DNA of 64,000 nucleotides from Cenococcum geophilum (taxonomy: Eukaryota), in NCBI GenBank assembly GCA_050273025.1, contig CP158635.1, positions 3,968,001 to 4,032,000 on the forward strand, read 5' to 3'. Positions 35,352-62,900 of the stretch are shown piece after piece (the first letter of the stretch is position 1; the number at the start of each line of letters is the position of its first letter). The position numbers and the translations under genes were made by a program. Under the pieces are notes generated by a model, which saw only the letters and a list, made by a program, of their open reading frames with translations, was not told the DNA's origin and made no database searches.

Positions 35352-38300
35352 AATAAGCAATAATATTAACTAAATTAATTAGATAGATATTACACCTTTA
35401 GTAAACAACTTAGAGATATTAGGAATCTTTAAGGATAAAAATTAAGAGGAGGGAGATAGTGTTATGGACGCTTTAAGTATAATATTATAACTACTTAGGG
35501 AAGAGTTAAAAGAAGCTAGTTAGTTAATTTAAGCACGGTCTAGAATAGAGCCGATAGAATTATGTGACGAGAAATAGTAACCAAAGTTATATAATGTGCT
35601 ATATATTAAATAAGAGGAACGGAAGGAACCTACGTACCTTATATATAAGACGTATATTATATATAAGAAGGATTTTATAGGAGTATAGTTATATATTTAA
35701 GAACCCTTAGTCCCTACCTAAATAGTTCCTTCCTTATAGTAATTCTTAGAATATAATTAGAGTTAATCTATTAGGCAACCACTCTACCAGTTATTATTAC
35801 GTTGTTAACTTTAATTTGCATTACCTATATACCTAGCCTATTAACGAGCCCATTGTAGTACTTACTATAAGGTTCCATTATACTTAGGGAAGAGTTAAAA
35901 GAAGCTAGTTAGTTAATATAAGTACGGTCTAAGATAGAGCTAATAAAACTATATAATAAGGAATAGTAACTAAGGTTATATAATGTGCTACGTATTAAAC
36001 AAGAGAAATAAGAGGAACTTATATACCTTATATATAAGACGTATATTACGTATAAGAAGGATTTTATAGAAGTACAATTGTGTATTTAAGGACCCTTAGT
36101 CCCTACCTAGATAGTTCCTTCCTTATAGTAATTCTTAAAATATAATTAGAGTTAATCTATTAGGCAACTACTCTACCAGTTATTATTACGTTATTAACTT
36201 TTATACTTATATTACCTATATACCTAGCCTAATAACGAGCCTACCGTAGTTCCTGCTATAAGGTTCCGTTATATAATTACTACCTAATTACGGTATTAAA
36301 TATAGAAAGTTAAATAATATGCCACTAAAAGCAGCCACTATAACGCTATTAACGGCGGCAACTACTTTAAGGTTAGGTGATACTAGTATGGCAGATACTA
36401 ACTTACAGCAACCTATAACGGTTAGATAATTATAAGAGATAGTTAACTAGTTAATAAAAAATAATATAGTGTTAGAAAATAGGATTAACGGGATAGGCGC
36501 AGTAAAGGTTAAGTTACTATTAATTAAGAGATACTTAGGAGAAAGATTAAAGCTTAAAGGATTCCTTATATAAATATACTTTAAGGTCGCGTAAAAAGGA
36601 GCTAAGCTGGTAACACCTATAGATTAAATAGTATATACAGGATTGTTCTTAACAGGAAGGGCACTTAAGTGGTTTAAATTTTACCTTACGGAAATTTAGG
36701 TAAACAGAATAACGACTATAAACTAAAAAGTACGGTTTATATTCTTAAGCTAGAACGGATTTGTAAAGCAACTTATATAAATATTTAGAGACCTAAAGGC
36801 AGTAACCACGGCGGAAAGAAAACTCTAAGATATTATATAATAAACCTCGGCAATTAAGTATATAACGTAATTCTAGACGTTAGTAACGTAAGTAGAGTAG
36901 AATAATAAGGCGCTTATGGCATAGTATAAATAAGGACTTAAGGCTAAAGTCTAGGACGTAATTATTCTAATAAAAGATGCGGAAACCCTATAGGATTTAA
37001 TAGATTAAGCGATTAAGATTAATAATTAGATCTATTAAAGGGAATAGGCTAAGAGAGGCTAGGATAGAGTTCTATAGTTATATAAGGCGTAAAGTACGCA
37101 ATAACTAAAGCTAAATTAGAAACTATAGTATGGCGTAGAGTTAATAGACCTAAGTAGTACTAGAGAAGCCTATAAGAGATAAAGTAAAAAACTATAAAAA
37201 CCTAGAGGTTAAGGATCTAGTAATTATAGGACTAAGGAGCAGAGGCTAAACTAGGGATCTTAGTAGCAGAAGACGTTTAGGCGGACTCTATAGTAAAGTT
37301 AATAGTTTAAGGACGGAGCTTATATAAATTATAGAAAATAAGGTCATTTTGCGAGGGATTATAAAGATGGTTAGAGTTATTATATAATAAAGGGAACTAG
37401 ATTAGCAGAAGGCATATATATATAGAGGGATAATAGTATACTACGAGGAACAAAAGAATATTTAATTAGAAGTTTCACGTTTTATTATAATAACGCATAC
37501 TAAATTTATAAAGACACTAAGTATGGCGTAAGCTATTAGCTATAGGAGCTAAAGTTTATAAAATATAGAGGAACTAATAAACCAGTTTGCAGATTGGACA
37601 TTAAAGATAATAAATTTAATAAAGGCGAAACATTTTATAATAATAAGGTAATAAGAGTAGCTTACTAGGAGTATGTGGACCTCTAAAATATTATACTAGA
37701 GGTAAAGGATAATTCCACTATAAAGCAGGGAATATTAGTAGGGATTAAGACCCCACTAAATACAATATCTATCGCTTCGCGAGATGTAAGAGAAGTAGGA
37801 TAGTGAACTACTTCGGCACTTAATAAAGGCAGAAAGCTAAAGGCTTAAGATTCTTAAGATAAGATAAAAGACGACTAAGATTCTTAAGCCAAGATAAGGC
37901 AAGCTTAAGGACCTATAATAGATAAAAACCAATAGAGTAGAGTAGTAGCTTAGTTTAAGAATATACGAATAAGCTTAGGATAGAGTTTCCTATAGGTATA
38001 AGACTCTTAAGACGAGATAAGTGAGATTTAAAACTTTTAAGATAAGATAAGAATACTAAGTAAGCCTAGTTAGACTAAGGCTAGAGTAAAGCTTAAGTTA
38101 AAAGTAAGCTTAGGATTAAAGAATCGAAGGGACTAAGAATTTAGGGTATAAATCAGGACACCTATAGGTAAGAGGTAAGGAGCTTCTTTATAGATTAGAG
38201 AATCTACAGTATAAATAGTAGCTAGATTAGGAGATAGGTATATAGACCTAGAGGACTTACTAGGAGAATAAAGTATTCGGCCTAAAGATTAAAAAGTTAA

Positions 38301-41300
38301 TACTAAGATTAAGAAGTAAGACGACTTTAAGGATCTACTTATAAGATGTAAAAGGAAAGAAACTATAGAGGAATTTAGAGTGTAAATTACCTTATAGCAA
38401 GAACAGAAACTAGATAAGAGATTTAGTATACTAGGTTGTATAAGGGACAAAGTACCTATATAAAGAATTACTAATAGGCCTAGGGTAGGTATACTAAGAG
38501 CTAAATAGCTTATTAAACTGGAATAAGAAGAGGATCTAGGGATTTTAACTAGGTTTAAGGACCAACATATTAAGAGCTGTTACGACGTAGTAATAAGAAG
38601 ATACTTTCTTATAGATAAGCCGTATATACTTTAGCAGCTATATTAAAAGTGGTATAGACAAAGGCATAATAATAAGTAGGAAGATTTCTATATGTGGCTA
38701 AATAAAAAAAGTTATCTAAGACTACCCAATTATAGAGAAGGCTATAAATTATATTAAAGGAGTTTTAATTATAATATTAAAGGATCTAAAGGAATAATTA
38801 GAGGACTAGAGAAGCGAGAGGCGTATCTTAGTACCTACGAACAAAGTCACGACGTTTAGATTAATATAGTAGAGGTTTAAACTTAAGAATAAAGATAAAC
38901 TAAGAGTTAACCTAAAGCACCTAGTATACTATACGCTATTATGGATTGTATGCGTGGATAATATATATAATATACACAAGAATCCAAAGGAAAAGAATTA
39001 AAAATACCCTAAGAGGATATATTGGCTGGCAGAAGAATAAAGATATAGAAATGCTAAGTATATATATAGTTAGCGTTTAGTAAAAGTTTAGGAGTTAGGA
39101 GACTTAATACTTTAGCTAAGAAGATTCCTTACGGAAGAATGCCTAGATAGATAATAGTGGTGGAAATACCTAGAGAACACGTATCTATAGTATAATAAAG
39201 ATAAAAAGCGAACTAAGTATTAGCCTAAGTTAGACTAAGTATAAATAGGATTAAGCAGCTAATAGTTAGGAAAAGTAGAGGCCTATAGGACTAGAGGGAA
39301 CTAGTAGTAGAGCCTTAGACCCTTAAAGGAATTTAAGGATAACACCTAAATTTACAAGTTAATTGGCAAGATTAATAGTTTAAGGCATTAATAGATAGTG
39401 GAGTAATAAGGAACTATATCTCGCCAATAGCAGTTAAAAGGATAGGTTTACTATATAGAGAAAAGGAATATCCTTACCTATTAGTAACAATTTTAGGAGA
39501 TCTAATAACCTATAAAGGAGGGATTATCAATCTTAAAATAGGACCTATTTAGTTAACTATTAAAGGGAGATAAATTAAGATGTCTTTTAATATATTACTA
39601 TTAGGGAATAATAAGGTAGTATTAGGAATACCTTAGTTATAGGAATACAATCTAAAGATTAATTGGATTATAGGTTAAGTTAATATTAGGGATACTTAAC
39701 GCCGTAAAATGTAATAATAAGCTAAGTTAGTATAGTACTAAGTTAGAGTAATATATAAAGAGATTAAATAAGGCTTAAGTTATATACTAAAGAGATACTA
39801 TAAGTATAGTAAAAAACTATAGTTACTAAAGAGTAAGAAGCTATTAGAGTATATAGTATAAAACTATAAAATAGAATTAGAACTAGAAATAAGTCTAAGG
39901 TTCTTTCTAATCTATAAGCTTACTAAAGAAAAGGGTAGAGTATTAAAAGAGTTTATTTAAGAAAACCTATAAAAGGGATATATTAGACTATTATAGTTAT
40001 TAGCGGGTTATCTAGTACTGTTTATACTAAAGAAAAATAGCAAGCTAAGACTATGCATTAACTATAGATAGTTAAATAGTATTACTTAGAAGAATAGGTA
40101 TCCTTTACCCTTAATTAGCGAAATCTAAGATAGGATAGGTAATGCGTAAATCTTTACAAAGATAGATCTAAGATAGGCGTACTATTAGATTAGAATTAAG
40201 GAAGGCAATAAATAAAAGGCAGCCTTTAGGTTAAAGGAAGGACTATATAAACTATTAGTTATATAATTTAGGCTTATAAACGCACTAGTAACGTTCTAAA
40301 AGTATATTAATAATATATTAGGAGAATACTTAGATAAATTTATTATAGTATATCTTAACGATATTATTATTTACTTAATAACTAAGGAAGAACACGGAGA
40401 ACACGTTAAATGGGTCTTAAAGAGACTATAAGAGGAATAGATATTAGTAGCAATTAAGAAATACGAGTTCTTTACTAGGAAGACTAATTTTATTAGATTT
40501 ATTATTAAACTAGGCTAACTTAGTATAGATTTAAAGAAGATTAAGGCTATAGTAAATTAGTAAGAACTAGAGAACGTTATATAGTTAAGATTATTTTTAG
40601 GGTTTTATAATTACTATAGAAGGTTTATAGCGCAATAGTTAAAGGATATTAAACTATTTACGCGACTAATAAAGAAAGAAGAACTATAGGTATAGGGATA
40701 AAAATAGAGAGAACTTTTTAGAAAAGTTAAAGAGTTATTTACCTAGGAGCTAGTTCTAAAGATCTATTAACTAGAACTAGAAATGGTTATAGAAACAAAT
40801 ATATTAAACTATATACTAGGGGCGTACCTTATATAAAAATATTAAAATAGATAGTACCTAGTGGTATACTATAGTTAAAAGATAATACTACTAGAGTTAA
40901 ACTATAACATTTATAATAAGGAGTTATTAGGTATAGTTATAGTATTAAAAAAATAAAGAGTATTCTTATAAGGTATAAAGAAACTATTTATAGTTAAAAT
41001 AGATTATAAGAACCTAATAGGATTTCTAATAATAAAGGAACTTAACTAAAGATAGGTTAAATGGGTAGAGATGCTTATAGAATACTATTTTAAGATTTAG
41101 TATATTAAGGGTATAGATAATATATAAGCAGATGCTCTAAGTTAGAAGGCTAAACTATAGAATAATAAAAAGCTATTAGGGGCTTTACTACGAAAAAACA
41201 TAGACGGATTAATTAGGTATAATTATCTAAAGATTATAGCAACTTAAGAGGAACTAAAAAGGGTTTATAAATTACCAGAAAGCTTTTAGGTATAAAGAAT

Positions 41301-41320
41301 TCTAAAAGTATAACTAGAAG

Positions 41321-44300: not shown

Positions 44301-47300
44301 TTAATAAGCCTAATGGACTAATGCGCCTTAACTAGAACAGCTTTTGTTGATATAGCTATAGCCGTAGTATACTGCTAGAATTCCTTGCTAATAAAGTTCC
44401 TACCGGCGTTGTGGGTAATATACTTAGGAGGTCTAACGTACGTATCAATCTAGCAGGTCTATAGAATATCCTAAGTATGCTTTGCGGATATATTTTACAA
44501 CTAACGGGCGGCTTAATAGCGGGTTGCCTTATTAATTATATGTAGTACTAGGCTGCCGTTAATATATATAATGTCTACGTATACTAAATAGTTAAAGTTA
44601 AGATCCTTATAAAGGGTGAACTTAAATCGGCCTAGGGAACGTCTATATTTCTAGTAGTAGGAATAGTATTTAGTTAGGTGGTTAATTGCCTTCCTATTAA
44701 CGTTGTTGTGTCTAGAGCGTTTAAGGACTCTATACAGCTTTTTAGTTAACGGGTGGCCGAAACGGCGGTGTAGGCGGTGGATTTCCGTACTGGTAAGGTA
44801 GCACGGGTTATAGTTAAAAGATTCCTAAATGTACGTCTATAAGGTCTCTCCCTATATAAGGAATGGGTGTCTAAATTGTTATATAATTAGTAAGGTGACA
44901 TGCTTATTTCCTAGGGTAGTTGCGTGGCTAATTAGAGTGTCTATAACGTTATTATAGTACACCTATAGCCTATCTATGTCCGTAAGGTAGAGTAGGAAAG
45001 GGGTATCCGCTTTTACTACGTGGAAGTTAACTAGGCTAATTAGAGTCTTAACTGCAACTAATCCGATTAATGCGGTTAAGCTAATACTAAACTAGACGTT
45101 TATGGCCCCAGTCTGCGTAGTATCAATATCTATATTATTATTTGTAGTGGCCTTATATACAAGGTATTGTCCATAGCCTGCAGTGGACTTCTTAGAGGCA
45201 CCTGTGTTAATTATAACACTGTAGAATTCCTTAAGGGTATAGCGTTCTGTGGTGATATATGTAAATAGGTCCTATTCATGGTCTATAACGTCCGTAACAG
45301 GTCTAGCGGGTATGCTTATAGATTGGTTTTTAGGTGCGATTAAGTGTATAAATAAGCGGTCGGCTAATACGGTTATAATATTAAAGGCTTAGCTGTCCGT
45401 AAAAGGTCCAAAAGTGGTTAGGAATGTCTCTAAGGTCTCCTATTCCTAAGCGTCTAAGTTAAAGTCGATTATAAGGGCTTCTATTAACTTATTAAGAGAC
45501 TCCTCCGCTTCCTCTCCTTTGTAGTCTAAGATAAACTAGTTAATCCGATTGTTAAATCTCTTCTTAGACTTATTACGTTCTTCCTAGGTATACCTTATAG
45601 ACCAATATTCTTCCTTACCGCATATAAAGCACTTCTGGCTAGTTTGTCTATGGGGGTATACTTTTATATAGGAGTTGTTGCGGGGGTTATAGGTAGGGCC
45701 TAGTTAATACGGGTACTGCTGGCGGTAGTGGCGGTCCGTAAAGTAGACGTCTAAGTCTGTTTATAGATATTAAATATCCGTAATAAAGGCTTAAGTGCTG
45801 CCTGGTGGGTTTAAGACTTTATACGTTATAATAGAGGAGCGTAGATTATTAATAAGGCCAGCTAAAGTGTCTATAGGCTTGTAATAGGCGTACTTATAGG
45901 GCTCTACTTCCTAGTAGGCCGTAATAAGTTTATTATATAGGAAGTCGTCTATTTGAAGCTTAGCGTTAAGGCCGTGCTATAGGTACCAGAGGTCTTTAAT
46001 GAGAATTTATAGGCACTCTATAGTCGATTTTTCAGTGTTCTTATCAATTACGGTCTATAGCTTGGTTGCATTTCATTAGGTAAGGATATTACGTTTATAT
46101 TCCGGTCCTTTAAAGTAGTTACAGGTAGCTTCGTATAGCTTATTAAAGGGAACACCAAGGGGGTTGCTCTTAAGGTTAGTGTAGTAGTAGTTAAGTGCTA
46201 GGCCGCGCAGCATGGTAGAGTAGGCTTAGCTAAACTTCTATTTAGGAATATCGGCCTTCTAACAGAGGTCCGTAAAGATGGTTAGTTTAAAATCAAAATT
46301 GTTATTTTTACCGCTGTACTTAGATTCGTCGGTATAGAGCTTAGCTAAGTTAGCTAGCTCCTTACCGTAGGTTTTTACTTAGGTAGGTTGCGGATCTATA
46401 ACTTATAGATCTATGGCTTGCGGATATATGGCTTACAGATCTATGACTTAAACAATAGGGGTAATTTAGTCCGTATTTTGGTTTGCGGGGGTATTACGGT
46501 CCGTAACTTAAGTACTAGGTATACTTTGGCCTGTAAGATTAATTCTAAAACTGTTTAGGTTTATAGGACGAATTTGGTTAAGTGGGTTAGGTATAAGGCT
46601 AGCGATTATATTAAGTTTGGAAGAAGTAAAGAGTTCCTTAGTTTCTTGGAACTGGTCTAGGATTTCCTCTTTAGTCTATTCCATTTGGTTCTTCTTATAT
46701 ATTATGTTGTATAAGGACTATATAATAGTAACTTATTTATTCCTTTTAACCCATACACCTTAGTTATATAAGAGGGTCCGTAGGTTACGGATAGTAGTAG
46801 GGTTGCATGCTTTAAAGATAGCTTCTGTAAAGTCCGCGAAGTCTTCCTAGTATTACTCCCATAGGTTAACGTTTATAAGCTTAAAATATTCGTATTTAAG
46901 GACTTTAAATTTAATGTAGTTATTAACGTTAGGTATAGACGTAAGGTCGACTCCCTGCCTCCACTTTTCCTAACCTTTATTAACTTGCTTTTTTAGGTCT
47001 ACTATACTATATTATATAGTGTAGTACGTAGTGGGTAGGAGGGGTCTTATAGTGGTCCGTAAAGGCGGTTGGTGGGTCCATAATAGTTTACGGAAGGGTA
47101 AGAGGTTTTGTAACGGTCCGTAAAGGTAATTAACAGGTCCGTAACGGTTCGTAGAAGGGTAAGGGGTCTCCGTAAGGGGTCTAAAAAGAGGTTAGGGGAG
47201 GTATAGTAGGAATAGGGGTTTAAGGTTTAGGGGTAGGGGTTCTATATAGGTCTGTATTCGCGTCTATTATACTTCTGGTAAACCGTACTAAGACTTAAAT

Positions 47301-47718
47301 AAGTATGCAGAGTTAGAGGTAAGTCCGTAATCCCCAACTTCCAACCTTCTAGCAGGTCGTACTAGGAGTCTAAACGGGTAGTCGCTGTCAAGTATCGCTT
47401 GGGGGAGGTATTAAGTGATTGCTGATCTGTGCGCGCTCACTAATCAGTATTTGTACTAACTTAATAGTATAAGTGAGTTAGATCTAGGGGCACGAAATAC
47501 GTATAGTATCGTATGCTCTTTTAGATAATGGTGACTATCGATTCTATAAAGCAGACTACGTGGTCTATATACTAATGCACCTCCCCCCTAATTAGTTAGT
47601 GCTTTATAAGTGCACTAGACGCGTAAGCGGGTGGTTAGTGCACCGAACGCGTAATCGCGTACTTAGTGCACCAAACGCGTAGGCACGCGGTTGGTGCAAC
47701 AGGTGCTGTAATTATACA
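41321..47718 (-). mobile_element. Full-length Ty1/Copia element, GalEa-like, inserted in G2 pol
   Basis: 271-bp LTRs 41321-41591 and 47448-47718; TSD AGAAG (41316-41320 / 47719-47723); domain order IN-RT-RH. Confidence 0.95.
42030..47010 (-). pseudogene. Copia gag-pol polyprotein (RIP-inactivated)
   Basis: HRRFGHP ~44750-44772, KSRLVVQ ~43385-43405, RDISQAY ~43240-43260, LYGVPEAGNHW ~43112-43143, QTDD ~42990, CTDSKSLYDCL ~42250-42280, NPADAMTK ~42110-42135. Confidence 0.88.
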
Positions 47719-48979
47719 AGAAGATTTATAGGTAAATATATATAAAAATTAAGAAGTAAAGTATATCCTAAAAAGTATAGTAGAGTAGTTTATAGAAGAT
47801 TTCTATAAAGGACTAACTTAAGGATATAACGGAGCCACGGGCTTAGTGTTAAGACTCTAAGAGGAGTATATTATTAATAGAATCTAGGGCTTAGCATAAA
47901 AAGTTATAAAGGAATATCTAAATTACTAAAGGAATAAACTAATAAGGCATAAGCTATATGGAGGGCTATAATCTATTAAAATACTAGAGAGACTATAGGA
48001 GGTTATATTATAGGACTTTATTATAAAGTTACTAAAGTTAAGAGATCCTATTACCGGATAAGATTATAACGCGATTTTAGTAATAGTAGATAAGCTTATA
48101 AAGTGGGGATACTTTATAGCGTATATAGAAGAAATATTAGTAGAAGATGTTACTAGAATCTATATTAAGGAAGTATTTATAAGACATAGAGCACTAAGTA
48201 AAATTATATTAGATAGAGATCTAAGATTTATAGCAGCATTTTAGGAGGTATTCTTAGCGGAGTAAGGAGTTAAAGCAGTAACTTTTACTGTATATTATTT
48301 ACAGACAGACGGTTAGACGGAAAAACTAAATTAGATATTAGAGTAGTATCTAAAACACTATATTAATTACGTATAGAATAATTAGGTATTGCTATTACTA
48401 GTTATATAATTTATATACAATATAACACTATAGGAAGGAATAGGTATATTACTATTTAAGGCGAATTATAAATATAAGCTAAGAATATCGCTATTACTAT
48501 ATTAAGTAAAGAAGATAAGTAGTATAGCTAAAGAAAGAATAAAGACGTTAATAAATCTTTATATAGACCTTATAGAATTAGTAAAGAAAGTATAAAAGAG
48601 AATAAAAAGTACTATAATGCTAAGAGATCTAAGGGACCAGATCTTAAGGAGGGAGATAAAGTATAGCTACTATATAAAATTTTCAAGAGTTAACAACTAA
48701 GTAAAAAGTTAGACTATGTTAGACTAGGACCTTTTAAAATTAAGTAAAAAATTTTACTAGTTATATTTAAGTTAAACTTACTAGCTAAAATAAAGATCTA
48801 CCCTATATAGTATATCGCAATGCTAAAGCTAGTATATAGGAATATTAAGCCACTAGTTTATAAAGTAGATACGTATAGAGGATAAGAGGAAGATAAATAG
48901 TAAGTTTTAAAGATCGTTAATTATAAGGACATTAATAATGAAATATAGTATAAGGTTAAGTAGATAGGCTACACTAAGA

Positions 48980-49664
48980 CTACCTAGGAACTACTAGAAA
49001 ATTTAAAGAATGCTATAGAAAAGGTATAGAAGTATTAGAAGAAATTAGGTTAGGTAGTATTAATAAAAAAGGATTGCTAAAGAATAAGTTACCTAAGGGG
49101 GACCTAAGAAGAGCAGTTGCCGAGCTACTTAGATCTATTTCCTTCTCTATTAGAGAAGAATTTATTCTTTTATTACTAAGTTCCTATAGACCCTATTTTA
49201 TAAGTTTCTACTCTTTAAAATAAACCTTCTTATAGACCTTCTTAAGACGGAGTAAACGAGTAGACGCCGCGATGTAAGCATTTAAGGCCTTTTATTCTGC
49301 GTCCTAAGAACGTTCTAATTTAGTAAAGGCTTAAGATAGTTTACTATCTAGTTGCGTAGCAGTAGATTAAATATAAAACCCTAAGATAAATTAATTAGGG
49401 AACTAGATGACTATTAAAAGTAATAAATTGCGTATATTTAGTATTAGATATAGAGCGAATGTTATAAGACGAACAAATATTCACTTTAGTGCACTTTAAG
49501 TAAGAGGATAATTATTATAAAGATAGATTCGCTAACGTAATATAAACTAACCCCTCTTTTAAATAGCAAGAATATAAAGACGGTATAATCTCACTAAGAG
49601 ATAATATCGCAGTAATAGTGTAAGTACGACGTTGGGCATGTAAAGAAGAAATTACTTTAGGTAT
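48980..49664 (-). pseudogene. Antisense Zn2Cys6-like/coiled-coil gene of G2
   Basis: Colinear with the other copies, 685 bp. Confidence 0.62.
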
Positions 49665-51043
49665 AATAAGCAATAATATTAACCAAATTAATTAGACGGA
49701 TATTATACCTCTAGTAAATAACTTAAAGATATTAGAAATCTTTAAGGATAAAGATAAAAAGGAGGGAGATAGTATTATAGACGCTTTAAGTACAATATTA
49801 TAACTACTTAAGAAAGAGTTGGAAAAAGCTAGTTAGTTAATATAAGTACGGTTTAGAATAGAGCCGATAGAACTATATAATAAGGAATAGTAACTAAGGT
49901 TATATAATATACTACGTATTAAATAAGAGGAATAAGAGGAACTTATGTACCTTATATATAAGACGTATATTATATATAAGAAGGATTTTATAAAAGTACG
50001 GTTATATATTTAAGGACCCTTAATCCCTACCTAGATAGTTTCTTCCTTATAGTAATTCTCAGAATATAATTAGAGTTAATTTATTAGGCAACTACTCTAC
50101 TAGTTATTATTACGTTGTTAACTTCTATACTTATATTACCTATATACCTAACCTAATAACGAGCCTACCGTAGTTCCTGCTATAAGGTTCCGTTATAGTA
50201 ATAGTAGATAAGCTTATAAAGTGGGGATACTTTATAGTATATATAGAAGAAATATTAGCAGAAGATGTTGCTAAAATCTATATTAAGGAAGTGTTTATAA
50301 GATATAGGGCACTAAGTAAAATTATATTAGATAGAGATCTAAGATTTATAGTAGTATTTTAGAAGGTATTCTTAGCGGAACAAGAAGTTAGAGTAGTAAC
50401 TTTTACCGTATATTATCCGTAAATAGATAGTTAAATAAAAAGACTAAATTAGATACTAGAGCAGTATTTAAAGCACTATATTAATTATATACAGAATAAT
50501 TAGGTATTATTATTACTAGTTATATAGTTTATATATAATACAATACTATAAGAAGAAATAGGCATATTACTATTTAAGGCGAATTACGGATATAAGCTAA
50601 GAATATTGCTATTACTATATTAAGTAAAAAAGATAAGTAGTATAGCTAAGTAAAGAATAGAGATATTAATAAATCTTTATAAGAACCTTATAGAAATAAT
50701 AAAGATAGTATAATAAAGAATAAAAAGGTACTATAATGCTAAGAGATTTAAGGAACTAGATCTTAAGGAGGGAGATAAAGTATAGCTACTATATAAAAAT
50801 TTTAAGAGTTAACAACTAAGTAAGAAGTTAAACTATGTTAGACTAAGACCTTTTAAAATTAAATAAAGGATTTTACTAGTCACGTTTAAGTTAAACCTAC
50901 TAGCTAAAATAAAGATCTACCCTATATAGTATATTATAATACTAGAGCCAGTATACAGAAGTGTTAAACTGCTAATTTATAAAGTAGACACGTATAGAGG
51001 ATAAGAAGAAGATAAATAGTAAGTTTTAAAGATCGTTAGCTAT

Positions 51044-54000
51044 TGTAACGGAACCTTATAGCAAGAACTACGATGGGCTCGTTATTGGGCTAGGTGTGTA
51101 GGAAATGCAAGTATAAAAGTCAATAACGTAATAATAATTGGTGGAGTGGTTGCCTAATAGATTAACTCTAATTATATTCTGAGAATTACTATAAGAAAGG
51201 AACTATCTAGGTAGGGACTAAGGGTCCTTAAATATACAACCGTACTCCTATAAAATCCTTCTTATATGTAATATACGTCTTATATATAAGGTATATAAGT
51301 TCCTCTTATTCCTCTTATTTAATATATAGTATATTATATAACCTTAGTTACTATTCCTTATTATATAGTTCTATCGGCTCTATCCTAGACTATACTTATA
51401 TTAACTAACTAGCTTCTTTTATCTCTTCTCTAAGTAGTTATAATATTATACTTAAAGCGTCCGTAATACTATCTCCTTTCTCTTTATCTTTATCTTTAAA
51501 GATTTAAAATATCTCTAAGTTGTTTACTAGAGGTATAATATCCGTCTAATTAATTTAGTTAATATTGTTGCTTATTATACCTAAAGCAATTTCTTCTTTA
51601 TACGCCCAATATCGTGCTTACACTATTACTATAATATTATCTCTTAGTAAGATTATACCGTCTCCGTGTTCTCGCTGTTTAAAAGAGGGGTTAGTTTATA
51701 TTACGTTAATGAACCTATCTTTACAACAACCGTTTTCTTACTTAGAGTATACTAAAGCGAATATTTATTTATTCTATAACGTTCGCTTTACTTTTAATGC
51801 TAAATATATATAACCTATTACTCTTAATAGTTATCTAGTTCCCTAATTAATTTATCTTAAGGTCTTATATTTAATCTACTGCTGCGCGGCTAGATAGTAA
51901 ACTATTATAAGCCCTTACTAAGTTAGAATGTTCCTATAACGCGGAATAGAAGGCCCTAGATACTTAAATTACGGCATCTGCTTATCTGCTTCGTCTTAAA
52001 AAGGTTTATAAGAAGGTTTATTTTAAAGAGTAGAAACTTATAGAATAAGGTTTGCAGGAATTAAGTAATAAAAAAACGGATTCTCCTCTAATAGAGAAGG
52101 AAATAGATCTAAGTAGTTCAGCAACTACTCTTCTTAGATCCCCCTTAGGTAACTTATTTTTTAGCAATCCTTCTTTATTAATACTGCCTAACCTAATCTC
52201 TTCTAATACTCCTATACCTTTTTTATAGCGTTCTTTAAATTCTCTAATGGCTCCTAGGTAGTCTTAGTATAGCCTATCCACTTAACCTTATACTATGTTT
52301 TGTTGTTAGTGTCCTTATAATTAACGATTTTTAAAACTTGCTATTTGTCTTCTTCTTATCCTTTATATATATCTGCTTTATAGACTAGTAGCTTAATATT
52401 CCCATATACTAGCTCTAGTATTACAATATACTATATAAGGTAGATCTTTATTTTGGCTAGTAGGTTTAACTTAAACGTAACTAGTAAAATCCTCTATATT
52501 ATTTTAAAAGGTCCTAGTCTAATATAGTCCAATTTCTTACTTAGTTGTTAACTCTTAAAATTTTTATATAGTAGCTATACTTTATCTCCCTCCTTAAGAT
52601 CTAGTCCCTTAGATCTCTTAGCATTATAGTACTTTTTTATTCTTTGCTATATTACCTTAGCTGTCTCTATAAGGTCTATATAAAGATTTATTAAATCCTT
52701 TATTCTTTCTTTAGCTATACTACTCGTTTTTTTTACTTACTATAGTAACAACAATATTCTTAGCTTATATCTATAATTTGCCTTAAATAGTAATATGCCT
52801 ATTCCTTCTTAAGGTGTTGTATTATATGTAAACTATATAACTAGTAATAGTAATACCTAATTATTTTATGCATAATTAATATAATGCCTTAGATACTGCT
52901 CTAGCGTCTAATTTAATCTTTCCGTTTAACCGTTTGTCTGTAAATAATATATAGTAGAAGTTACTACTTAAACTCCTTACTCCACTAAGAATACTTCCTA
53001 AAATGCTGCTATAAATCTTAGATCTCTATCCAATATAATCTTACTTAGTGCTCTATATCTTATAAACACTTCTTTAACATAGATTCTAGCGACATCTTCC
53101 GCTAAGATTTCTTTTATATATGCTATAAAGTATCCCTACTTTATAAGCTTGTCTACTATTACTAAGATTACGTTGTAATTTTATCTAGTAATAGGATCTT
53201 TTAATTTTAGTAACTTAATAATAAAGTCCCATAATATAACCTCCTATGGTCTCCCTAGTATTTTAATAGGTTATAGCCCTCTATATAGCTTATGCCTTAT
53301 TAGTTTATTCCTTTAGCAATCTAGATATTTCTTTATAACCTTTCTAGTTATCCTTTAAATTCCGTTAATAATATACTCCTTCTAGAGTCTTAACACTAAG
53401 CCTATAGCTCTATTATATTCTTAAGTTAGTCCCTTATAAAAGTCTTCTATAAACTGCTTTGCTATGCTTCTTAGGATATACTTCGCTTTTTAATTTTTAT
53501 ATATATCTGTTTATAGATCTTTTAGCTATACTTTTAGAATTTTTTATACCTAAAAGCTTTCCGGTGTCTCGTAGACTTTCTCTAGTTTATTATTTTCTTA
53601 AGTTGCTATAATTTTTGGATAATTATACCTAATTAATCCGTCTATATCTTTTTGCAATAAAGCCCCTAATAGCTTTTCCTTATTTTATAGTTTAGCTTTA
53701 CGGCTTAGAGCATCTGCCCTTATATTGTCTGTACCTTTAGTATACTAAATCTTAAAATAGTATTCCGTAAGTATCTCTGCCCATTTAACCTGTTTTTAGT
53801 TAAGTTCCTTTATTATTAGGAATCCTATTAGGTTCTTATAATCTATCTTAACTATAAATGGTTTCTCTATGCCTTATAAGAATGCTCTCTATTTCTTTAA
53901 TACTATAACTATACCTAACAACTCCTTATTATAGATGTTATAGTTTAACTCTGGTAGTATTATCTTTCGATTATAGTATACCACTAGGTGCTATCTATCT

Positions 54001-57000
54001 TAATGCCTTTATATAAAGTATGCCCTTAGTGCGTAGTCTAATACATCTATTTTTATAACCGTCTCTAGTCCTAGTTAATAGATTTTAAGAACTAGCTCCT
54101 AGGTAAACAACTCTTTAACTTTCTTAAAGAGTTTTCTTTACTCCTCTCCCTATGCCTATAGTTCTTCTTTCTTTATTAACCGCGTAAATGGCTTAATATC
54201 CTTTAACTACTGCGCTATAAACCTTTTATAGTAATTGTAAAACCCTAGGAACGATCTTAACTATATAACGTTCTCTAGTTCCTACTAATTTACTATAGCC
54301 TTAATCTTCTTTAAATCTATACTAAGTTGGCCTAGTTTAATAATAAATCTAACGAAATTAGTCTTCCTAGTAAAGAACTTATATTTCTTAATTACTACTA
54401 GCATCTGTTCTTCTTATAGTCTCTTTAAAACCCATTTAACGTGTTCCCTATATTCTTCCTTAGTTATTAAGTAAATAATAATATCATTAAGATATACCAT
54501 AATAAACTTATCTAAGTATTCTCCTAATATATTGTTAATACGCTTCTAAAACGTTGCTAGTGCGTTTATAAGCCTAAATTGTATAACTAATAGTTTATAT
54601 AGTCCTTCCTTTAACCTAAAGGCTGCCTTCTATTTATCGCCTTCCTTAATCCTAATTTAATAGTACGCCTATCTTAGATCTATCTTTGTAAAGATTTGCG
54701 CATTGCCTATCCTATCTTAGATTTCGCTAATTAAGGGTAAAGGATACATATCTTTCTTAGTAATACTGTTTAACTATCTATAGTTAATACATAGCCTTAG
54801 TTTGCCATTTTTCTTTAGTATAAATAGTACTAGATAACCTACTAATAACTGCGATGGTCTAATATATCCTTTTTATAGATTTTCCTAAACAAACTCTTTT
54901 AACGCTCTACCTTCTTCTTTAGTAAGCTTATAGATTAGAAAAAACTTTAGACTTATTTCTAGTTCTAACTTTATCTTATAGTCCTATGCTATATATTTTA
55001 ACAGCTTTTTACTTTCCAGTGACTATAGTTTTTTGCCGTACTTATAGTATCTCTTTAGTATATAACTTAGTCCTTTTTCTGTTTCTTTATAGGTTGCTCC
55101 TACTTAGTACTATACCAACTTGGCTTATTATTGTATCTTACGGCGTTAAGTATCTCTAATATTAACCTAACCTATAATCTAATTGATTCTTAGATTATAT
55201 TCCTATAACTAAGGCATACCTAATACTGCCTCGTCCCGTCCTAATAGTAGGATATTAAAAGACATCTCAATTTGTCTCCCTTTAATAGTTATCTAAATAA
55301 GTCCTATTTTAAGATTAATAATCCCTCCTCTATAGGTTATTAGATCTCCTAAAATCGTAACTAATAGGTAAGGTTGCTCCTTTTATCTATAAGGTAGTCC
55401 TATTCTCTTAACTACTGCTAGTAAGATGTGGTTTTATATTACTCTATTATCTATTAGCGCTTCAAACTGCTAATCTTACCACTTAATTTATAAATTTAGG
55501 TGTTATTCTTAAATTCCTTTAAGGGTCTAAGGCTTTATTACTAGCTCCCTCTAGTCCTATAGGCCTCTACTTTTTCTAACTATTAGCTGCTTAATCCTAG
55601 TATATTTAGCTTACTCTTTAGCTAATACCTAATTCGCTTTTTATCTTTAATATGCCATAGACACGTATTTTCTAGGCATTCCTACTACTATCGTCCGTCT
55701 AAGCATTCTTCCGTAAGGAATCTTCCTAGTTAAAGTACTAAACTTCCTTCCTCTTGGACCTCTGCTAGATACCATCCATATATATATTTGGCATTTTTAT
55801 ACTATTACTTATCCGTTATCTAGTATATCCTTATAGGGTATTTCCAATTCTTTTCCTTCGGATTCTTATATATTTCGTATATATTGTCTATATACGTAAT
55901 CTATAATAACGTATAGTGTACTAGGTGCTTTAGGTTAACTCTTAGCTCGTTTTTATCCCTAAGTTTAAACCTTTATCGTACTAATCTAAACGTTATAACT
56001 TTATTTATAGGTACTAAGATGCGTCTTTTGCTTCTCTAGTCCTCTAAACGTTCCTTTAGATCCTTTAACGTTATAATTAAGGCTCCTTTAATATGCGTTA
56101 TAGCCTTCTTTATAATTAGGTGGTCCTAGATAACCTTTTCATCCAACTATATATAGAAATCTTCCCACTTATTATTATGCCTTTACCTATACCACTTTTG
56201 GTATAGCTACTAGAGTGTATACGGTCTATCCATAAGGAAGTATCTTCTTATTACTGTATTATAACAGCCCTTTATATGTTATTCTTTAAACCTAGTTAGA
56301 ATCCCTAGATCCTCTTTATTCTTTAGTTCGGTAAGCTACTTAGCTCTTAGTATACCTACTCTTAGCCTATTAGTAATTCTTTGTACTAGTACTCTGTCCT
56401 TTATACGTCCTAATATGCTAGATCTTTTATCTAGTTTCTGTTCTTGCTATACAATAATTCTTTACCTAAACTCTTCTATAGTTTCTTTTAGTTTGCGCCT
56501 TACGCTCTAATCCTTAAAGTTATCTTACTTCTTAATCCTAGTATTAAACTTTTAATCTTTAGGCTAAACACTACGTTCCCCTAGTAAGTCTTCTAGGTTT
56601 ATATATCTGTCTCCCAGTCTAACTACTATTTATATTGTAGATTCTCTAATCTATAAAGAAGCTCCTTACCTCTTACCTATAGGTATCCTTATTTATACTC
56701 CAAAATCTTAGTTCCTTGGATTCTTTAATCCTAAGCTTGCTTCTAACTTAAGCTTAGCTCCCGCCTTAGTCTAACTAGGTATCTATAGTGTTCTCATCTC
56801 GTCTTAAGAGTCTTAAATCTTACTTATCTCGTCTTAAGAGTCTTATACCTGTAGGAAACTCTGTCCCGAGCTTATTCGTATATTTCTAAACTAAGCTACT
56901 GCCCTACTCTATCGGTTTTCGTCCGTTATAGGTCCTTAGGTATACCTTATCTCGTCTTAAGAATCTTAGTCGTCTCTTATCTCGTCTTAAGAATCTTAAG

Positions 57001-58995
57001 CCTTTGGCCTTTTACCTTTATTAAGTGCCGAAGTGGTTCGCTGTTCTACTTCTCTTACGTCTTGTAAAGCGATAGATATCGTATCTAGTGGGGTTTCGAT
57101 CCCTACTAATATTCCCTATTCTATAGTAGAATTATCCCCTACCTCTAGTATAATATCTCTAAGGTCTGCTTACTCTTAGTAAGCGGCCCTTATTGCCTTA
57201 TTATTACGGAATGTTTTGCCTATATTAAATTCATTGTCCTTAATATCCGATCTGTGAACTGGTTCGTTAGTTCCTCTATATCCTATAGGTGCTGGCTCTT
57301 ATAGCTAATAGCTTACGCTATACTTAGCGTCCTTATAAATTTAGTATGTGTTGTTATAACAAAACGCAAAACTTTTAATTAAATATTCTTTTGTTCCTCG
57401 TAGCATATTATTGTCCCTCTGTATATATATATCGTCTACTAGTCTTATACCTTTTACTACGTAGTAACTCTACCTACTTCTATAGTCTCTGATATAATAA
57501 CCCTGTTTTCCGTAATTTATGCAAGCTCCTTCTTTAAACTATTTCTCTTACTATAGAGTCTGCCTAAATGTCTTCTACTGCTAAGATCCCTGATTCGGCC
57601 TCTGCTCCTTAGACCTTTAATTACTTAATTCTTATCCTCTAGGTTTCTATAGTTTGCTCTATCTCTTATAGGCTTCTTTAGTATTACTTAGGTCTATTAG
57701 CTTTGCGCTATACCATGTTTTCTAACTTAGCTTTTGTCGTTGCGTACTCTATGCCTTATATAACTATAGAACTCTATCCTAGCCTCTTTTAGCCTGTTCC
57801 CTTTAGAAGATCCTATTATTAATCTTAATCGCCTAATCTATTAGTTCCCTTAGGGTGTCCGCATCTTCTATTAGAATAATTATATCCTAGACTTTAGCCT
57901 TAAGTCCCTATTTATACTGTGCTATAAGCGCCCTATTATTCCACTTTACTTATATTACTAGTGTCTAGAACTATGTCGTATACTTAATTACTAAAGTTTA
58001 TTGCACGAGGTTCTGGAGTTTTTTTTCTGCTATAATTATTTCTTCCAGGTCTTTAAATATCTGCGTAAGTCATTTTACAAATCCTTCCCAACTTAAAAAC
58101 ATAAATTGCATGTCTTAGTTAGTGGTCGTTATTCCGTTTGCCTATATCTCTATAAGGTAAAATTTAAACTACTTAAGTGCTTTTCCTAATAAGAATAGTC
58201 CTACGTAGGCTATCCGATCCACAGGTATAAGTAACTTTACTCCCTCCTATAAGACCTTAAAGTGTATCTGCGTAAGGAATCCTTTAAGCTTTAACCTCTC
58301 TCCTATAAATCTCTTAATTAATAGTAGCTTAATCTTTGCTGCTTCTATCCCGTTAAGTTTTTCTTCTAACACTATATTGTTAGCTATTAGCTAGTTAACT
58401 ATTTTTTTATAGCTGTCCAACCGTTATAGGTTGCTGTAAGTTAGTATCTGCTATACTGGTATCACCTCCTATCCTTAAAGTAGTTGCTGCCGTTAATAGC
58501 GTTATGGTGGCTACTTTTGGTGGCATGTTATTTAACTTCTTATATTAATACCGTAACTAGGTAGTAATTATATAATAGAACCTTATAGCAAGAACTATAA
58601 TGGGCTTATTATTGGGCTAGGTGTATAGGAAATGCAAGTATAAAAGTTAACAACGTAATAACAACTGGTGGAGTAGTTGCCTAATAGATTAACTCTAATT
58701 ATATTCTAAGAATTACTATAAGGAAGAAACTATCTAGGTAGGGATTAAGGGTCCTTAAATACACAACCGTACTCCTATAAAATCCTTCTTATACGTAATA
58801 TACGTCTTATACGTAAGGTACGTAAGTTCCTCTCGTTCCTCTTGTTTAATATATAGCACATTATGTAATCTTGGTTACTATTCCTCGTTACATAGTTCTA
58901 TCGGCTCCATCCTAGACCGTGCTTATATTAACCAACTAGCTTCTTTTGTCTCTTCTCTAAGTAGTTGTAATATCGTACTTAAAGCGTCCGTAATA
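51044..58995 (-). mobile_element. Gypsy family G copy G4 (inverted), inserted in the G1 chromodomain
   Basis: 425-bp LTRs 51044-51468 and 58571-58995; TSD GCTAT (51039-51043 / 58996-59000); gag ATG at 58526. Confidence 0.93.
51577..52261 (+). pseudogene. Antisense Zn2Cys6-like/coiled-coil gene of G4 (exon 1 51577-51805, intron 51806-51860, exon 2 51861-~52261)
   Basis: ORF-track 51565..51813 covers exon 1 (PSPCSRC intact); intron and stop position inferred. Confidence 0.65.
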
Positions 58996-59055
58996 GCTAT
59001 AAGGATATTAACAATAAAATATAGTATAAAGTAAAGTGGATAGGCTACACTAAGA

Positions 59056-59761
59056 CTACCTAGGAACTACTAGAGAATTTAAAAAACGCTATAGGAAAGG
59101 TACAGGAGTATTAGAAGAAATTAGGTTAGGTAGTATTAATAAAGAAGGATTACTAAAGAATAAGTTACCTAAGGGGGACCTAAGAGGAGTAGTTACTAAG
59201 CTACTTAGATCTATTTCCCTCTCTATTAAAAGAAAATCTGTTTTTTTATTACTAAGTTCCTATAGACCCTATTTTATAAGTTTCTACTTCTTAAAACAAC
59301 CCTTTTTACGCACCTTCTTAAGACGGATTAGTTAAGTAGACGTCGTAAGATAAGACTTAAGGGCCCGTTGCTAAGTATTAGCAGCCTCCTATTTAGCGTC
59401 CTAAGAATGGTATAATTCCGCTAAAGTAATAGATAGTTTATTATCTAGCTATATAGCAGCAGATTAAATATAAAACTTTAAAATAAATTAATTAGGGAAC
59501 TAGACGACTATTAAGAGTAATAGGTTGTATATATTTAGCATTAGAGATAGAGTAAATATTATAGGACGAATAAATATTCGCTTTAGTGTACTTTAAGTAA
59601 GAGGACGGTTATCGCGAAGATAGGTTCGCTAATATAATATAAACTAACCCCTTTTTTAAACAATAAGAATATAGAGACGGTATAATCTTACTAAGAAATA
59701 ATATTATAGTAATAGTATAAGTATAACAAGCAGTTAAGGAAGAAGAAATTGCTTTAGGTAT
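59056..59761 (-). pseudogene. Antisense Zn2Cys6-like/coiled-coil gene of G1, with a 21-bp in-frame insertion
   Basis: 706 bp versus 685 bp in the other copies; extra 59368-59388. Confidence 0.62.
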
Positions 59762-59987
59762 AGTAAGTAATAATATTAACTAAATTAATTAGACGGATAT
59801 TATACCTCTAGTAAATAACTTAGAGATATTTAGAATCCTTAAGGACGAAGATAAAGAGGAGGGAGATGGTGTTATAGACGCTTTAAGTATAATATTATAA
59901 CTACTTAGAGAAGAGTTAAAAGAAGCTAGTTAGTTAATTTAGGTACGGTTTAAAATAGAGCCGGTAGAGCTATATAACAAGGAATAG

Positions 59988-62900
59988 TATAGTGGTGTAA
60001 TTTGGCCCCTAGATTTAACATCTAAATTAGGCATAGCTTTGGGAGAGCCTAGGCCTTATATAAGTTATATAGATCGGTCTAGAGCCCTTAGAGTTTTTAA
60101 TAACTTAGATAGGCACGACAGACATATAATATACTCTTTTCTTTCTTTCTTACTGCCTATTCTACTAACTAATTACAACTAACTAACCGACTAACTAACT
60201 GACTGATAGATAGACAGATAGCACTGTTACTTTCCTATCTTAGAGAGGTTGTACCCTCCTATATATTTTATGGCATTCTATATAGGGACGACGGTAAGCT
60301 CTTTAGATTAAAAGTCCAGCGCTATATACATAGGAGACGTATAGGAACGTGCTGTAGCCACTGAAAACTATTAAGTTACTATTATTAGAAGCCGTTAAGT
60401 TACTAATAGGTGCGGAAATTAAGCACGGAACTACTAGCGACGTACGCGCAGGTATTACTATTACTAAGATAAGTTAATAACACTTTTGGAGATTATTATC
60501 TAAGACCTATAGTAGACGGAATAAATAACTAGAAGTGGGAATATAAGTATAGGGTACGGCAGGATAGAGGATAAAAGAGAGGGTTATAATGCATCAGGAC
60601 CAGCAGAAAGAAGTCTTTAATTTTTTATTTACTATATTTGCAACGGTCTATATAATTCTTCTAGCATTTATACAAGCCTTCCTTAAATTTATAAGAGTAA
60701 TGGCGATAGGACTGATAAAGGGAATACTAGGGATGCTAGGCCCATTCTATAATGACGGTAGAGAAGGAAGTAGGCAGCCTGCTAACCTACGAAGTTTTCC
60801 TAACCTAAAGGATGCGGTACTAGACCTAACTCCTACAACGTCTAAAACTAATAACCTTTAGTAAAAAGAGGACAAGAACTAAGAGGTTAACTTACCTATC
60901 CTAGGAGAAACTGCTAGTCCGTTACCTTGTAATAAACCACTAATAAAATAAGATAAGGTATATATTATAGCCTAGCCTATGCCAGCTCTAGGGACTCTAG
61001 GGACTCCTTACTTTACGGGATAAAATATATCGCAATTTATTAAATAATATGAGCGACTATATATTTGACACCGTGTTACGGACAATAAGAAGCATTAAGG
61101 ACTTCTAAAATATTATAACTATTAGATAGGGACCTAGATCCAAAGTCTGCCTAAGTTTATTATTAGCAGATAAACGGAACTCATAAAAAAGCTTTAGATA
61201 GACTACTAAGGAAGTAACTACTTTCAATAAGTTAAGACGGTAGAATTCTTGGAAGCGTATATACTATAGTATAGGAACAACCCACCTAGTAGTATACGCG
61301 AGTACTATAGACAATTTACACTAATTTCCTAGAAGGTTACTAAAGCTAGTAATTTAGAAAACCGTAAATAAGGATACTAGTTTATAAAAGGACTTCTATT
61401 TAAATATCAAAAATATACTATAACTAAGACAGGAGCTAACCCGGATAAACGAGAGTCTTTTAACTTTTATCTACTAAGAAGGGCTGTAGAAAACAGGCTT
61501 AATTTATATAAAGGCGTAGACCGCTTATTAATAATAAACCCTAAAAAGTAAGGTCTCCGTTAACTAGTTAAATAATTCTGCAAGCAGTAGCCGGCTATAT
61601 TAAACTAGAGAGATGCTGCTCTTTAGCCGCCTATAGTCTTTTAGCTAAATAAGTCGGCAAGTGCCCGTTATATAACCTAAGAGACGGACCCTAAGCTAAA
61701 GAGCCTTACTAGTTAACTCCGGAAGCTTAATCTTAGGACGGTTAAATTAGCAAGCATTATATCTTTAATGCCGTTCCTTAATAGAATTCGCTAAGACCTA
61801 ATATAGTATATACAGCTCCTAAATAAGGCGTCAGCGCGTTAAGAATAAGTAGGTCTATAACCGGTAATAAATAATAACAAACTACTACCGTCCTATAAAG
61901 GGGCGCTATGAGAGCGATATAAGCTAGGTTTAGGAAGGTATAGAAAACTAGGAAACCCTAGTGCATACTAAATATAAGATAAGACGTGTTATAGATATAG
62001 AGGCCCTTATTATTTTATTAACTAATACCTAGAGCTCTAAGAACTAGTTAGCTGGGGGTTCTTATATATAAACGAGAACAACCAAATCTATACTAAAATA
62101 CGTTAGCGCCTAGGAAATCCACTCCCATATTTACCAAGCAGCTATTAAATTCAGTTCCTTAAAGACTAGCTAAGGTAGAATGCGAATATTAATCCCAATG
62201 CGACGGCGACAGGTATCTAACTAAATACGTCCTTAGTAGAGCTTATAGAAAGCAATAGCGCTAAAAGTAAAAAAGAGCTCGGCGAGTCCTAGGAAGATAT
62301 ATACTAAGTAGAGTCGGTATACGTTAATCTAATAGGAGCAGCAACCCAGTCGCAGCCTATAATACGGTCATACGATCTTAGAAAGCCAAGAGGAGACATT
62401 AAGGTGATAAAACTATTTCTAAAACTAACTGGTTTGTAACCGGCAATAGTTTAAAATATACAACTAGGAGGATATGTCTAAATCGCACCACAACTACAGC
62501 GGCAGGCCCCCTATTCACTAGTAAACAATAAGGAGACTAATAAAATAGACTATACTAAATAGCTAAGAAGAGAAGTAGAGTAAGGAATAGAAGCGACTAT
62601 AACCGCTAAAGTACCGCAACTAAAGCCAGTTAGGATAATAGACATATTAAAAGGGAATGTCCTAAGCCCAACCGTAATAGCGAACAAGATCTTATTAAAA
62701 ACTATTAAAGTTACTATTAGTAACTGCCTTGTGTATATACCTAAAGTTATAAGGTTATTCTTTAAGCCGCTCCTACTACCTTTTATAAAACCTTACCAAC
62801 AAAAGCAAGAGGGCGTTAAGGCATCTATATTGTTGGCATACCTAACGTTTTATGCTAATTAAGCTAGCCTAATAACTATAGAGGTAGACCAAATTAAACG

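Follow-up and report, generated by a model that had tools for sequence, protein, structure and literature searches.

Relics of a probable two-exon antisense gene with a heptad-stepped helix in a Ty3/gypsy retrotransposon of Cenococcum geophilum

Why does one copy of a repeat in the genome of Cenococcum geophilum carry exactly 21 nucleotides more than its neighbors, at a site where the strand opposite to pol may encode a protein? The site lies in positions 59290-59445 of a 64,000-nucleotide segment of contig CP158635.1, which we call the window, and the repeat is a Ty3/gypsy retrotransposon, four copies of which contribute a unit of ~1 kb each (G1 to G4). An earlier interpretation, made from the letters of the window alone (the sequence-only reading), held that the 21 nucleotides are an insertion of one heptad into a coiled-coil protein encoded antisense to the element, kept by selection and not explained by drift of a neutral untranslated region (UTR). 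Here we describe the gene model, the antisense coding signature, the variation of length in heptad steps and the predicted helix of this family. The 21-nucleotide difference sits in exon 2 of a two-exon gene that runs opposite gag-pol, between the end of the chromodomain and the 3' long terminal repeat (LTR). The explanation that best joins the observations, and in which we have good confidence, is a two-exon antisense gene whose product contains a helix varying in heptad steps, with G1 belonging to a subfamily that has one heptad more and with all copies here being relics killed by repeat-induced point mutation (RIP).

The length difference is real: two MAFFT alignments give a single gap of 21 columns in G2-G4 relative to G1, and this is the sole insertion or deletion (indel) among the four copies from the end of the pol chromodomain to the polypurine tract. 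Because the unit opens with the end of pol and closes with the polypurine tract and LTR, the difference falls within the ~700 nucleotides between pol and the 3' LTR. Its position is softer than first described, since the gap slides within ~59347-59390; MAFFT puts it at 59349-59369 and a protein alignment at ~59347-59367, while relatives of the same length class that carry the same heptad (L027, L052, L053, L060, L080 and P0012, see below) fit the original placement best. From the alignments and these relatives, the extra heptad of G1 is assigned to 59368-59388 on the minus strand, with the ambiguity just given. The three transversions cited by the sequence-only reading as synonymous or conservative in the antisense frame have the codons described, with G1 against G2/G3/G4 showing GCT vs GCA/GCA/GCG (Ala), GTG vs GTC/GTT/GTT (Val) and ATC vs CTC/CTC/CTT (Ile/Leu), but non-conservative ones in the same stretch had been omitted (TAC vs GAA/AAA/GAA, ATT vs TAA and GGT vs GTT/GTC/GTT).

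Taken by itself, the window is a poor witness. The 29 transversion columns of 59140-59845 divide as 14, 8 and 7 among antisense codon positions 3, 1 and 2 (chi-square p~0.2, four copies), and in the known part of pol the same four copies give transversion columns by codon position of only 8/6/5. With this p value, and with a chance of 1 in 3 that any single indel is a multiple of three, the window alone cannot carry a coding claim, and the original evidence was too thin for what it was asked to support. A comparison of consensuses with RIP reversed, which had been suggested as a check, turned out to be uninformative: in the de-RIPped consensus of the four copies the true integrase frame still has 24 stops in 399 codons. 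Hardly any TGA occurs in any frame, and the true pol frame has more stops than a wrong one, so that tests based on open reading frames (ORFs) and stops are uninformative on the window. Pfam, applied to six frames of the full window copy, left the antisense frames without a family, and when the RIP-mutated translation of G2 was used for a word-indexed search, 146 candidates came back, none at E<=0.01. On this material one could take the stretch for a neutral, non-coding 3' UTR in which slippage of a short tandem duplication produced a length that is a multiple of three by chance. The two neighboring 21-mers of G1 agree at 12 of 21 positions, the four copies give no significant codon signal, and neither de-RIPping nor stop codons discriminate between frames. 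Moreover, of the 34 transversion columns of the G1 part, 18 fall within 59300-59431, and the depth of reads from other family members drops about tenfold across this stretch; it is thus the unit's most variable patch rather than a conserved one.

Related sequences change this picture. When 1.84 billion proteins were scored with a profile of the four antisense translations, 51 short ORF products matched at E<=1e-3, 16 of them at E<=1e-10, and many of the 51 have an amino-acid make-up without signs of RIP. A second profile, built from these first matches, gathered 134 proteins, all sourced from metagenomes; their names are uninformative and they carry no Pfam domain. Scanning metagenome contigs yielded 415 matches, the best 80 of which were used as loci (L numbers). 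Most of these 80 are RIP-mutated; L002 is not (GC 0.48), and its gag and pol are intact, with protease, reverse transcriptase, ribonuclease H, integrase, SH3 and Chromo (33.9 bits against a cut-off of 25.1). In one of the 80, L001, the antisense match is split over two frames. The antisense gene is present in all four window copies and across subfamilies, as judged from the best 80 of 415 loci and the 134 ORF products. Classified by the distance between two motifs that bracket the variable part of the protein, G1 belongs to a 42-residue class together with the six relatives named above, and G2-G4 to a 35-residue class with L057, L066, L077 and L078. Since the same heptad occurs in those six relatives, the extra heptad is a subfamily trait common to other loci and not an insertion private to G1, as had been thought. 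Copies of the family abound in DNA runs of two organisms and in metagenomes from roots and soil, with ~21,000 contig pieces of DNA run X1 falling on G1 at 80% likeness. The L002 contig (7546 bp) has ends that overlap by 3 nucleotides and continue each other, which fits a tandem array or a collapsed or circular assembly.

As RIP yields only transitions, transversions were chosen as the measure of constraint. Across 83 copies and 156 codon columns, the purine/pyrimidine diversity at antisense codon positions 1, 2 and 3 is 0.105, 0.090 and 0.157, respectively (Wilcoxon, 3>2 p=4e-5; 3>1 p=7e-4), and the same nucleotide class is the most diverse under any of six guide frames for the alignment. Ungapped sets of equal length, restricted to exactly the stretch with the 21-nucleotide difference, behave alike: one gives 0.175/0.136/0.349 (n=20, p~1e-4) and a second 0.118/0.120/0.206 (n=22, p<0.01). 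Transversions alone thus show a third-position excess in the antisense frame. L001 and L002, which are free of RIP, differ at 24, 32 and 48 sites by antisense codon position, and when the pol-frame tail of L002 was shuffled synonymously, the antisense frame stayed stop-free in 0.36% of 5000 shuffles. These related sequences support selection on an antisense protein, so that this part of the sequence-only reading is upheld on evidence other than its own.

In intact relatives the predicted protein has ~190-220 residues and consists of an N-terminal six-cysteine motif, a helix of ~100 residues, a variable linker and a conserved hydrophobic-acidic C-terminal motif. This last motif ends at a conserved stop that overlaps the end of pol and holds the same position in most matches. 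The cysteines belong to a second coding block, which lies upstream of the helix part in another frame and reads CX2CX6CX13CX2CX8C; the six columns are C, or Y as the product of RIP, in 43 of 43 copies, against a mean C/Y fraction of 0.023 elsewhere. Between the blocks lies an intron of 55-130 nucleotides, with a GT[AG][CT]G start, a branch-like CT[AG]A[CT] site and a [CT]AG end. Removal of the 64-nucleotide intron of L001 creates the junction ..SDNE-W-SRV.., and the records P0001, P0013, P0058 and P0157, which represent three length classes, read ..SDAE-W-SRV.. without interruption at exactly the predicted junction. Translation is likely to start at the methionine of MPP.., 29 residues upstream of the cysteine motif, to judge from the sequences of the relatives.

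Mapped onto G1 (minus strand), exon 1 occupies 59533-59761 and holds the six-cysteine motif with C->Y changes by RIP, the 55-nucleotide intron occupies 59478-59532, and exon 2, assigned by mapping and homologues, occupies 59089-59477 with the helix, linker, C-terminal motif and stop (129 codons, 10 in-frame RIP stops). The stretch 59290-59445 lies wholly within this exon 2. Two methionine equivalents in G1 now read ATA: the one at 59761-59759, which matches the MPP start of L001, L002 and P0157 and is likely the true start, and a downstream one at 59683-59681, from which the six-cysteine motif runs. The splice sites have been hit by RIP as well (5' ATATAC and 3' TTTTAA, where less mutated relatives have GT[AG][CT]G and [CT]AG). 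The other three remnants follow the same plan. On the minus strand, G2 (49013-49586) has exon 1 at 49586-49436, the intron at 49435-49381 and exon 2 at 49380-49013, and G3 (34700-35273) has them at 35273-35123, 35122-35068 and 35067-34700; both exons 2 have 122 codons and 7 stops. In G4 (51655-52228), where the element is on the minus strand and the remnant on the plus strand, they lie at 51655-51805, 51806-51860 and 51861-52228 (122 codons, 6 stops). Since the cysteine-proximal start has changed from ATG to ATA in four of four copies, the splice sites are mutated and exon 2 contains 6-10 in-frame stops, the antisense genes of G1-G4 are pseudogenes inactivated by RIP; the gene can be called coding in intact relatives, and the window retains only what RIP has left of it. 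A second patch in which G1 diverges (59708-59741) has 6 transversion columns at 59729-59738 and a more than tenfold drop in the depth of other family members; it belongs to the N-terminal portion of exon 1, flanked by the two methionine equivalents.

AlphaFold2, run on P0058 with an alignment of 22 sequences, models residues 98-199 as one helix of 102 residues at a predicted local distance difference test score (pLDDT) of 94-98, with a cysteine part of low confidence (pLDDT ~48) and a disordered tail. At the level of the model, the central part of the protein is a long uninterrupted alpha-helix. The two anchor motifs lie on either side of the variable half of the helix, and in 77 of 85 members the distance that separates them is divisible by seven: 28 residues in 1, 35 in 38, 42 in 28 and 49 in 10. 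The exceptions (31 residues in 2 members, 46 in 4, and 57 and 60 in 1 each) are mostly 3 or 4 residues off. Sequence comparison thus has indels keeping the heptad phase within the predicted helix. The linker between the second anchor and the C-terminal motif shows no such pattern: between 60 and 72 residues, only the lengths 70 and 71 are missing. Clustering of the segment gave 18 sequence types, from which ~12 independent events of 7 or 14 residues, several of them visible tandem duplications (L014, L050, P0036), were counted against ~6 others. One heptad position, occupied by L, A or V, is the most hydrophobic and stands in the same register from a fixed anchor in 9 of 9 non-RIP sequences, covering the classes of 35, 42, 46 and 49 residues; because subfamilies differ in the N-terminal half of the helix mostly by 7 or 14 residues, this stripe stays in register. 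The predicted helix varies by heptads with its hydrophobic stripe kept in phase, and G1 comes from a subfamily with one more heptad. We infer from the model that the helix may be a dimerizing coiled coil. A homodimer prediction for residues 52-239 of P0058 scored 0.06 against a mark of 0.32 and, being without controls, has no weight either way; a Foldseek comparison of the P0058 model with the PDB gave no match at E<=0.001. Seven-residue steps in the helix but not in the linker, together with the ungapped codon-position test on the very same stretch, speak against a slipping, neutral UTR, which the family-level results already contradict and which we now consider very improbable.

The contrast between a selected protein and a neutral UTR had left out an alternative that non-RIP relatives bring in, namely a sense pol frame that is open as well. 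The pol frame of L002 continues past Chromo (residues 1092-1140 of 1258) through the antisense of exon 2 to the edge of the contig, and, followed over the overlapping contig ends (2-3775 and 7053-7544, minus strand), it crosses the intron, exon 1 and the polypurine tract. The frame of L001 is likewise open if its one frameshift is allowed. The extended frame ends at a conserved stop ~120 nucleotides inside the LTR, so that the extension runs for ~280-300 codons past the chromodomain and spans the whole antisense gene. The window copies run colinear with this frame; in G1 the corresponding sense frame covers 58995-59987 on the plus strand, with the chromodomain-like end followed by a frame colinear with the open extension of the relatives and a stop at 59985-59987 inside the LTR. 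Because this frame is open in relatives free of RIP, a multiple of three alone cannot separate the strands. Only the sense strand might then code, with an extension of pol forcing multiples of three and the antisense ORF a non-functional shadow. In keeping with such an arrangement, synonymous shuffling of the antisense gene leaves the pol frame stop-free in only 2.7% of 5000 shuffles, the intron length is 1 modulo 3 in 42 of 42 copies in which the motif was found (50 examined), a property that a spliced intron would not need, and diversity jumps from ~0.1 to ~0.3 directly past the conserved pol-frame stop. The substitutions within exon 2 point the other way, as transversions make the second codon position of the pol frame the most variable and the third the least, the reverse of what coding sequence shows. 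Read in the pol frame, the six invariant cysteine codons would specify His or Gln according to a variable base, and the multiples of seven codons, the splice signals and the intron-less records find no explanation on the sense strand. The pol-frame tail has no Pfam domain. All of this fits a sense frame kept open alongside an antisense gene and not instead of it, and we give the sense-only explanation a low probability. We read the sense frame as held stop-free beside an antisense gene that, by the sequence comparisons, probably bears the constraint.

RNA data bear on the question of transcription. From RNA run X21, 27 reads fall on G1, none of them on 59300-59800; 26 are under 90% alike and 1 is at 90-95%. 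All 27 have one orientation, with the first mate on the plus strand (library strandedness not given). They lie at 58994-59299 and 59810-59877 and run off into a different LTR at 59874. The reads suggest that a diverged member of the family is transcribed. An antisense transcript need not be translated, and it might act as RNA, for instance by pairing with genomic RNA for silencing, with the ORF incidental. The uniform orientation of the reads from a related copy agrees with this within the limit just given, and non-coding antisense transcripts of other retrotransposons have been described and a role of double-stranded RNA discussed in passages of PMC7264820. The third-position excess, the invariant cysteines, the conserved stop, the heptad-step indels and an openness beyond that of the synonymous shuffle are, however, protein-level signals, and an RNA-only function appears unlikely to us. 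In the two-exon antisense gene that we favor, the transcript would begin at or near the 3' LTR and the protein would regulate the element's own transcription.

Several points weigh against the protein-coding antisense gene. The choice of the best-scoring 80 of 415 matches favors unbroken frames, and, judged by contig names, two metagenome data sets supply 78 of the 80 loci, so that the copies are paralogs in few genomes and not independent. A second sense-strand frame has the same third positions as the antisense frame, with 1 stop in the L002 stretch and closed in L001, and the sense pol frame is also open over the region of the 21-nucleotide difference in L002. The intron-less records P0001, P0013, P0058 and P0157 could come from intron-less DNA, their molecule type not being given, and the X21 reads are too few and too distant to show expression of the antisense gene. 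The heptad events were counted by eye from the clusters and not on a tree. The 3.5-residue a/d periodicity of the helix is weak (shuffle p 0.02-0.47), its hydrophobic stripe is alanine-rich, and a second d-like position is weak beside the one stripe position that keeps its register in four length classes. As for the cysteines, Pfam Zn_clus (PF00172) scores 11.6 bits (E=0.32) in exon 1 of L001 against a cut-off of 21 and finds no match in exon 1 of L002 or in P0058, and a sequence search of the PDB returned nothing significant, with PPR1 at E=4.4 on the cysteine region.

What the protein might do can be approached through its architecture. Zn2Cys6 clusters follow the spacing rule CX2CX6CX5-12CX2CX6-8C, and Gal4-like dimers have a cysteine cluster followed by a long helix. 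The family resembles the Gal4 type (PF00172) in its six N-terminal cysteines (CX2CX6C..CX2CX8C) and in the long helix after them. It differs in its middle loop of 13 residues, one beyond that range, in its sub-threshold Pfam score and in being a much shorter protein without the middle homology region. Pfam on P0058, P0054, P0060, P0001, P0009 and P0013 found only sub-threshold, coiled-coil-like noise, and a feature search of the ESM Atlas reached Ascomycota clusters at 0.90-0.91, one of them automatically named as a Zn(2)-C6 fungal-type domain protein. By analogy, a cysteine cluster, then a long helix, then a hydrophobic-acidic tail is how a small, Gal4-like dimeric activator is built, and the cysteine motif may bind zinc and DNA. 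Since the Zn_clus threshold is not reached and neither the PDB search nor Foldseek gave matches, we can only infer a function.

Antisense extra genes of LTR retrotransposons are already known in plants and in one fungal family. The fungal case is brtn, reportedly the antisense gene of the Boty-like Ty3/gypsy retrotransposons of Botrytis cinerea and said to have been described by Zhao and colleagues in 2011 (in Virology 417:248). Passages in four papers state that Boty-like elements of Botrytis carry brtn (PMC7264820, PMC8365987, PMC4227169, PMC5987419), and one describes a Monilinia transcript that matches a truncated Pol and BRTN, implying adjacency or overlap of the two (PMC5987419). The likeness lies in an extra antisense gene in a fungal gypsy element whose pol has a chromodomain (PMC4227169); it is one of description, and the passages on brtn mention no cysteine motif, intron, coiled coil or heptad indels. 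Among the matches listed for our family, none has an NCBI or UniRef source and none a name beyond 'hypothetical protein', save one automatic JGI label; thus brtn is either not detectably related or was missed by word-limited searches. In plants, the antisense ORFs between pol and the 3' LTR treated in passages of PMC7264820 include gene23 of maize Grande and those of rice RIRE2, Silene Retand and Phaseolus PvRetro13. They share position and orientation with the gene described here and occur in most copies of their families; nuclear localization and a regulatory role have been proposed for them, and, according to the same passages, none has clear similarity to other proteins or a known function. 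They belong to plant elements, some of them not chromoviruses (Retand, in the abstract of PMC11963269), whereas the present family has an intron and an architecture like that of fungal zinc-cluster factors. G1-G4, L001 and L002 share this layout (aORF-3R type, which includes brtn), with the gene opposite to pol and situated after pol ends and before the 3' LTR. A term search of 'LTR Retrotransposons in Fungi' (PMC3248453) found antisense or extra ORFs unmentioned. In the literature searched, which left the original description of brtn outside its scope, no protein of the present kind was found described for fungal retrotransposons, and priority is uncertain.

HBZ of human T-cell leukemia virus type 1 (HTLV-1) is a retroviral basic leucine zipper protein encoded antisense near the 3' LTR, with a dimerizing helix, a nucleic-acid-binding part and a spliced form. 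The antisense promoter of HTLV-1 lies in the 3' LTR, as stated in a passage of PMC7264820. Any likeness is in the mode of working only, without a claim of relation in sequence. A bolder and more tentative reading, which we regard as possible and somewhat doubtful, is that a widespread family of fungal chromoviruses has a ~700-nucleotide overlap of opposite strands, in which an extended pol frame faces an antisense, intron-containing gene for a small Gal4-like self-regulator (zinc cluster, coiled coil and acidic tail), expressed from a promoter in the 3' LTR, as a fungal counterpart of HBZ. The pol extension would then be kept open yet free to vary, with the 3n+1 length of the intron held by the sense frame and the 7n length of the helix by the antisense protein. 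Whether or not this holds, the family offers a testable architecture, with a cysteine cluster, a heptad-periodic helix, a conserved tail and an intron that marks the coding strand, and it provides many natural length variants in seven-residue steps. It also illustrates that the history of a gene at the protein level is readable from copies destroyed by RIP, via transversions and indels, and it draws attention to a possible long overlap, in antisense, with an extended pol frame.

The window is AT-rich, with RIP-like dinucleotide ratios (TpA/ApT 1.74; (CpA+TpG)/(ApC+GpT) 0.38). The Ty3/gypsy element that makes up its repeat measures ~7.85 kb, with LTRs of ~430 bp, and Pfam, searching six frames of the full window copy, recognizes RVT_1, RT_RNaseH and SH3_Tf2-1 on the plus frame of 28453-35456. 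The chromodomain of this RIP-mutated copy was recognized as a motif by eye only. By its domains, LTRs and polypurine tract, and with Chromo scored in L002, the element is a Ty3/gypsy LTR retrotransposon of the chromovirus type. Repeat comparison places the ~1 kb unit at 58979-59989 (G1), 48907-49892 (G2) and 34605-35579 (G3) on the plus strand and at 52319-51349 (G4) on the minus strand, and G1 is 82-83% identical to G2-G4. The first ~150 nucleotides of the unit (~58995-59130 in G1) carry, on the sense strand, the chromodomain-like end of pol. In G1 the alignment and the sequence place the polypurine tract at 59845-59869 and the first 120 nucleotides of the 3' LTR from 59870 to 59989, where the unit is cut off, both on the plus strand.

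G1 is part of a plus-strand copy into which a full minus-strand copy has inserted at 51046-58993, splitting it in two. The inserted copy, 7.9 kb long, sits at the start of the chromodomain of its host (flanks 50196-51043 and 58994-59989), with a short repeat (about TAGCT) at both junctions, and in the host copy the LTR at 49770-50202 is joined straight to the C-terminal part of integrase. Elsewhere, 22069-41320 holds three or four element copies arranged head to tail with LTRs in common, the first of which (22142-27985) is without the C-terminal part of integrase and the whole antisense-gene region. Matches of 58-62% identity at 8701-9486, 12080-12816, 26138-26939, 39793-40641 and 54338-55019 tie the element to more distant repeats within the window's first 13 kb, which probably belong to a second gypsy family. 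A separate pair of inverted repeats of ~0.9 kb, 1782-2679 and 46604-47536 (minus strand), is 80% identical and lies in less AT-rich parts of the window.

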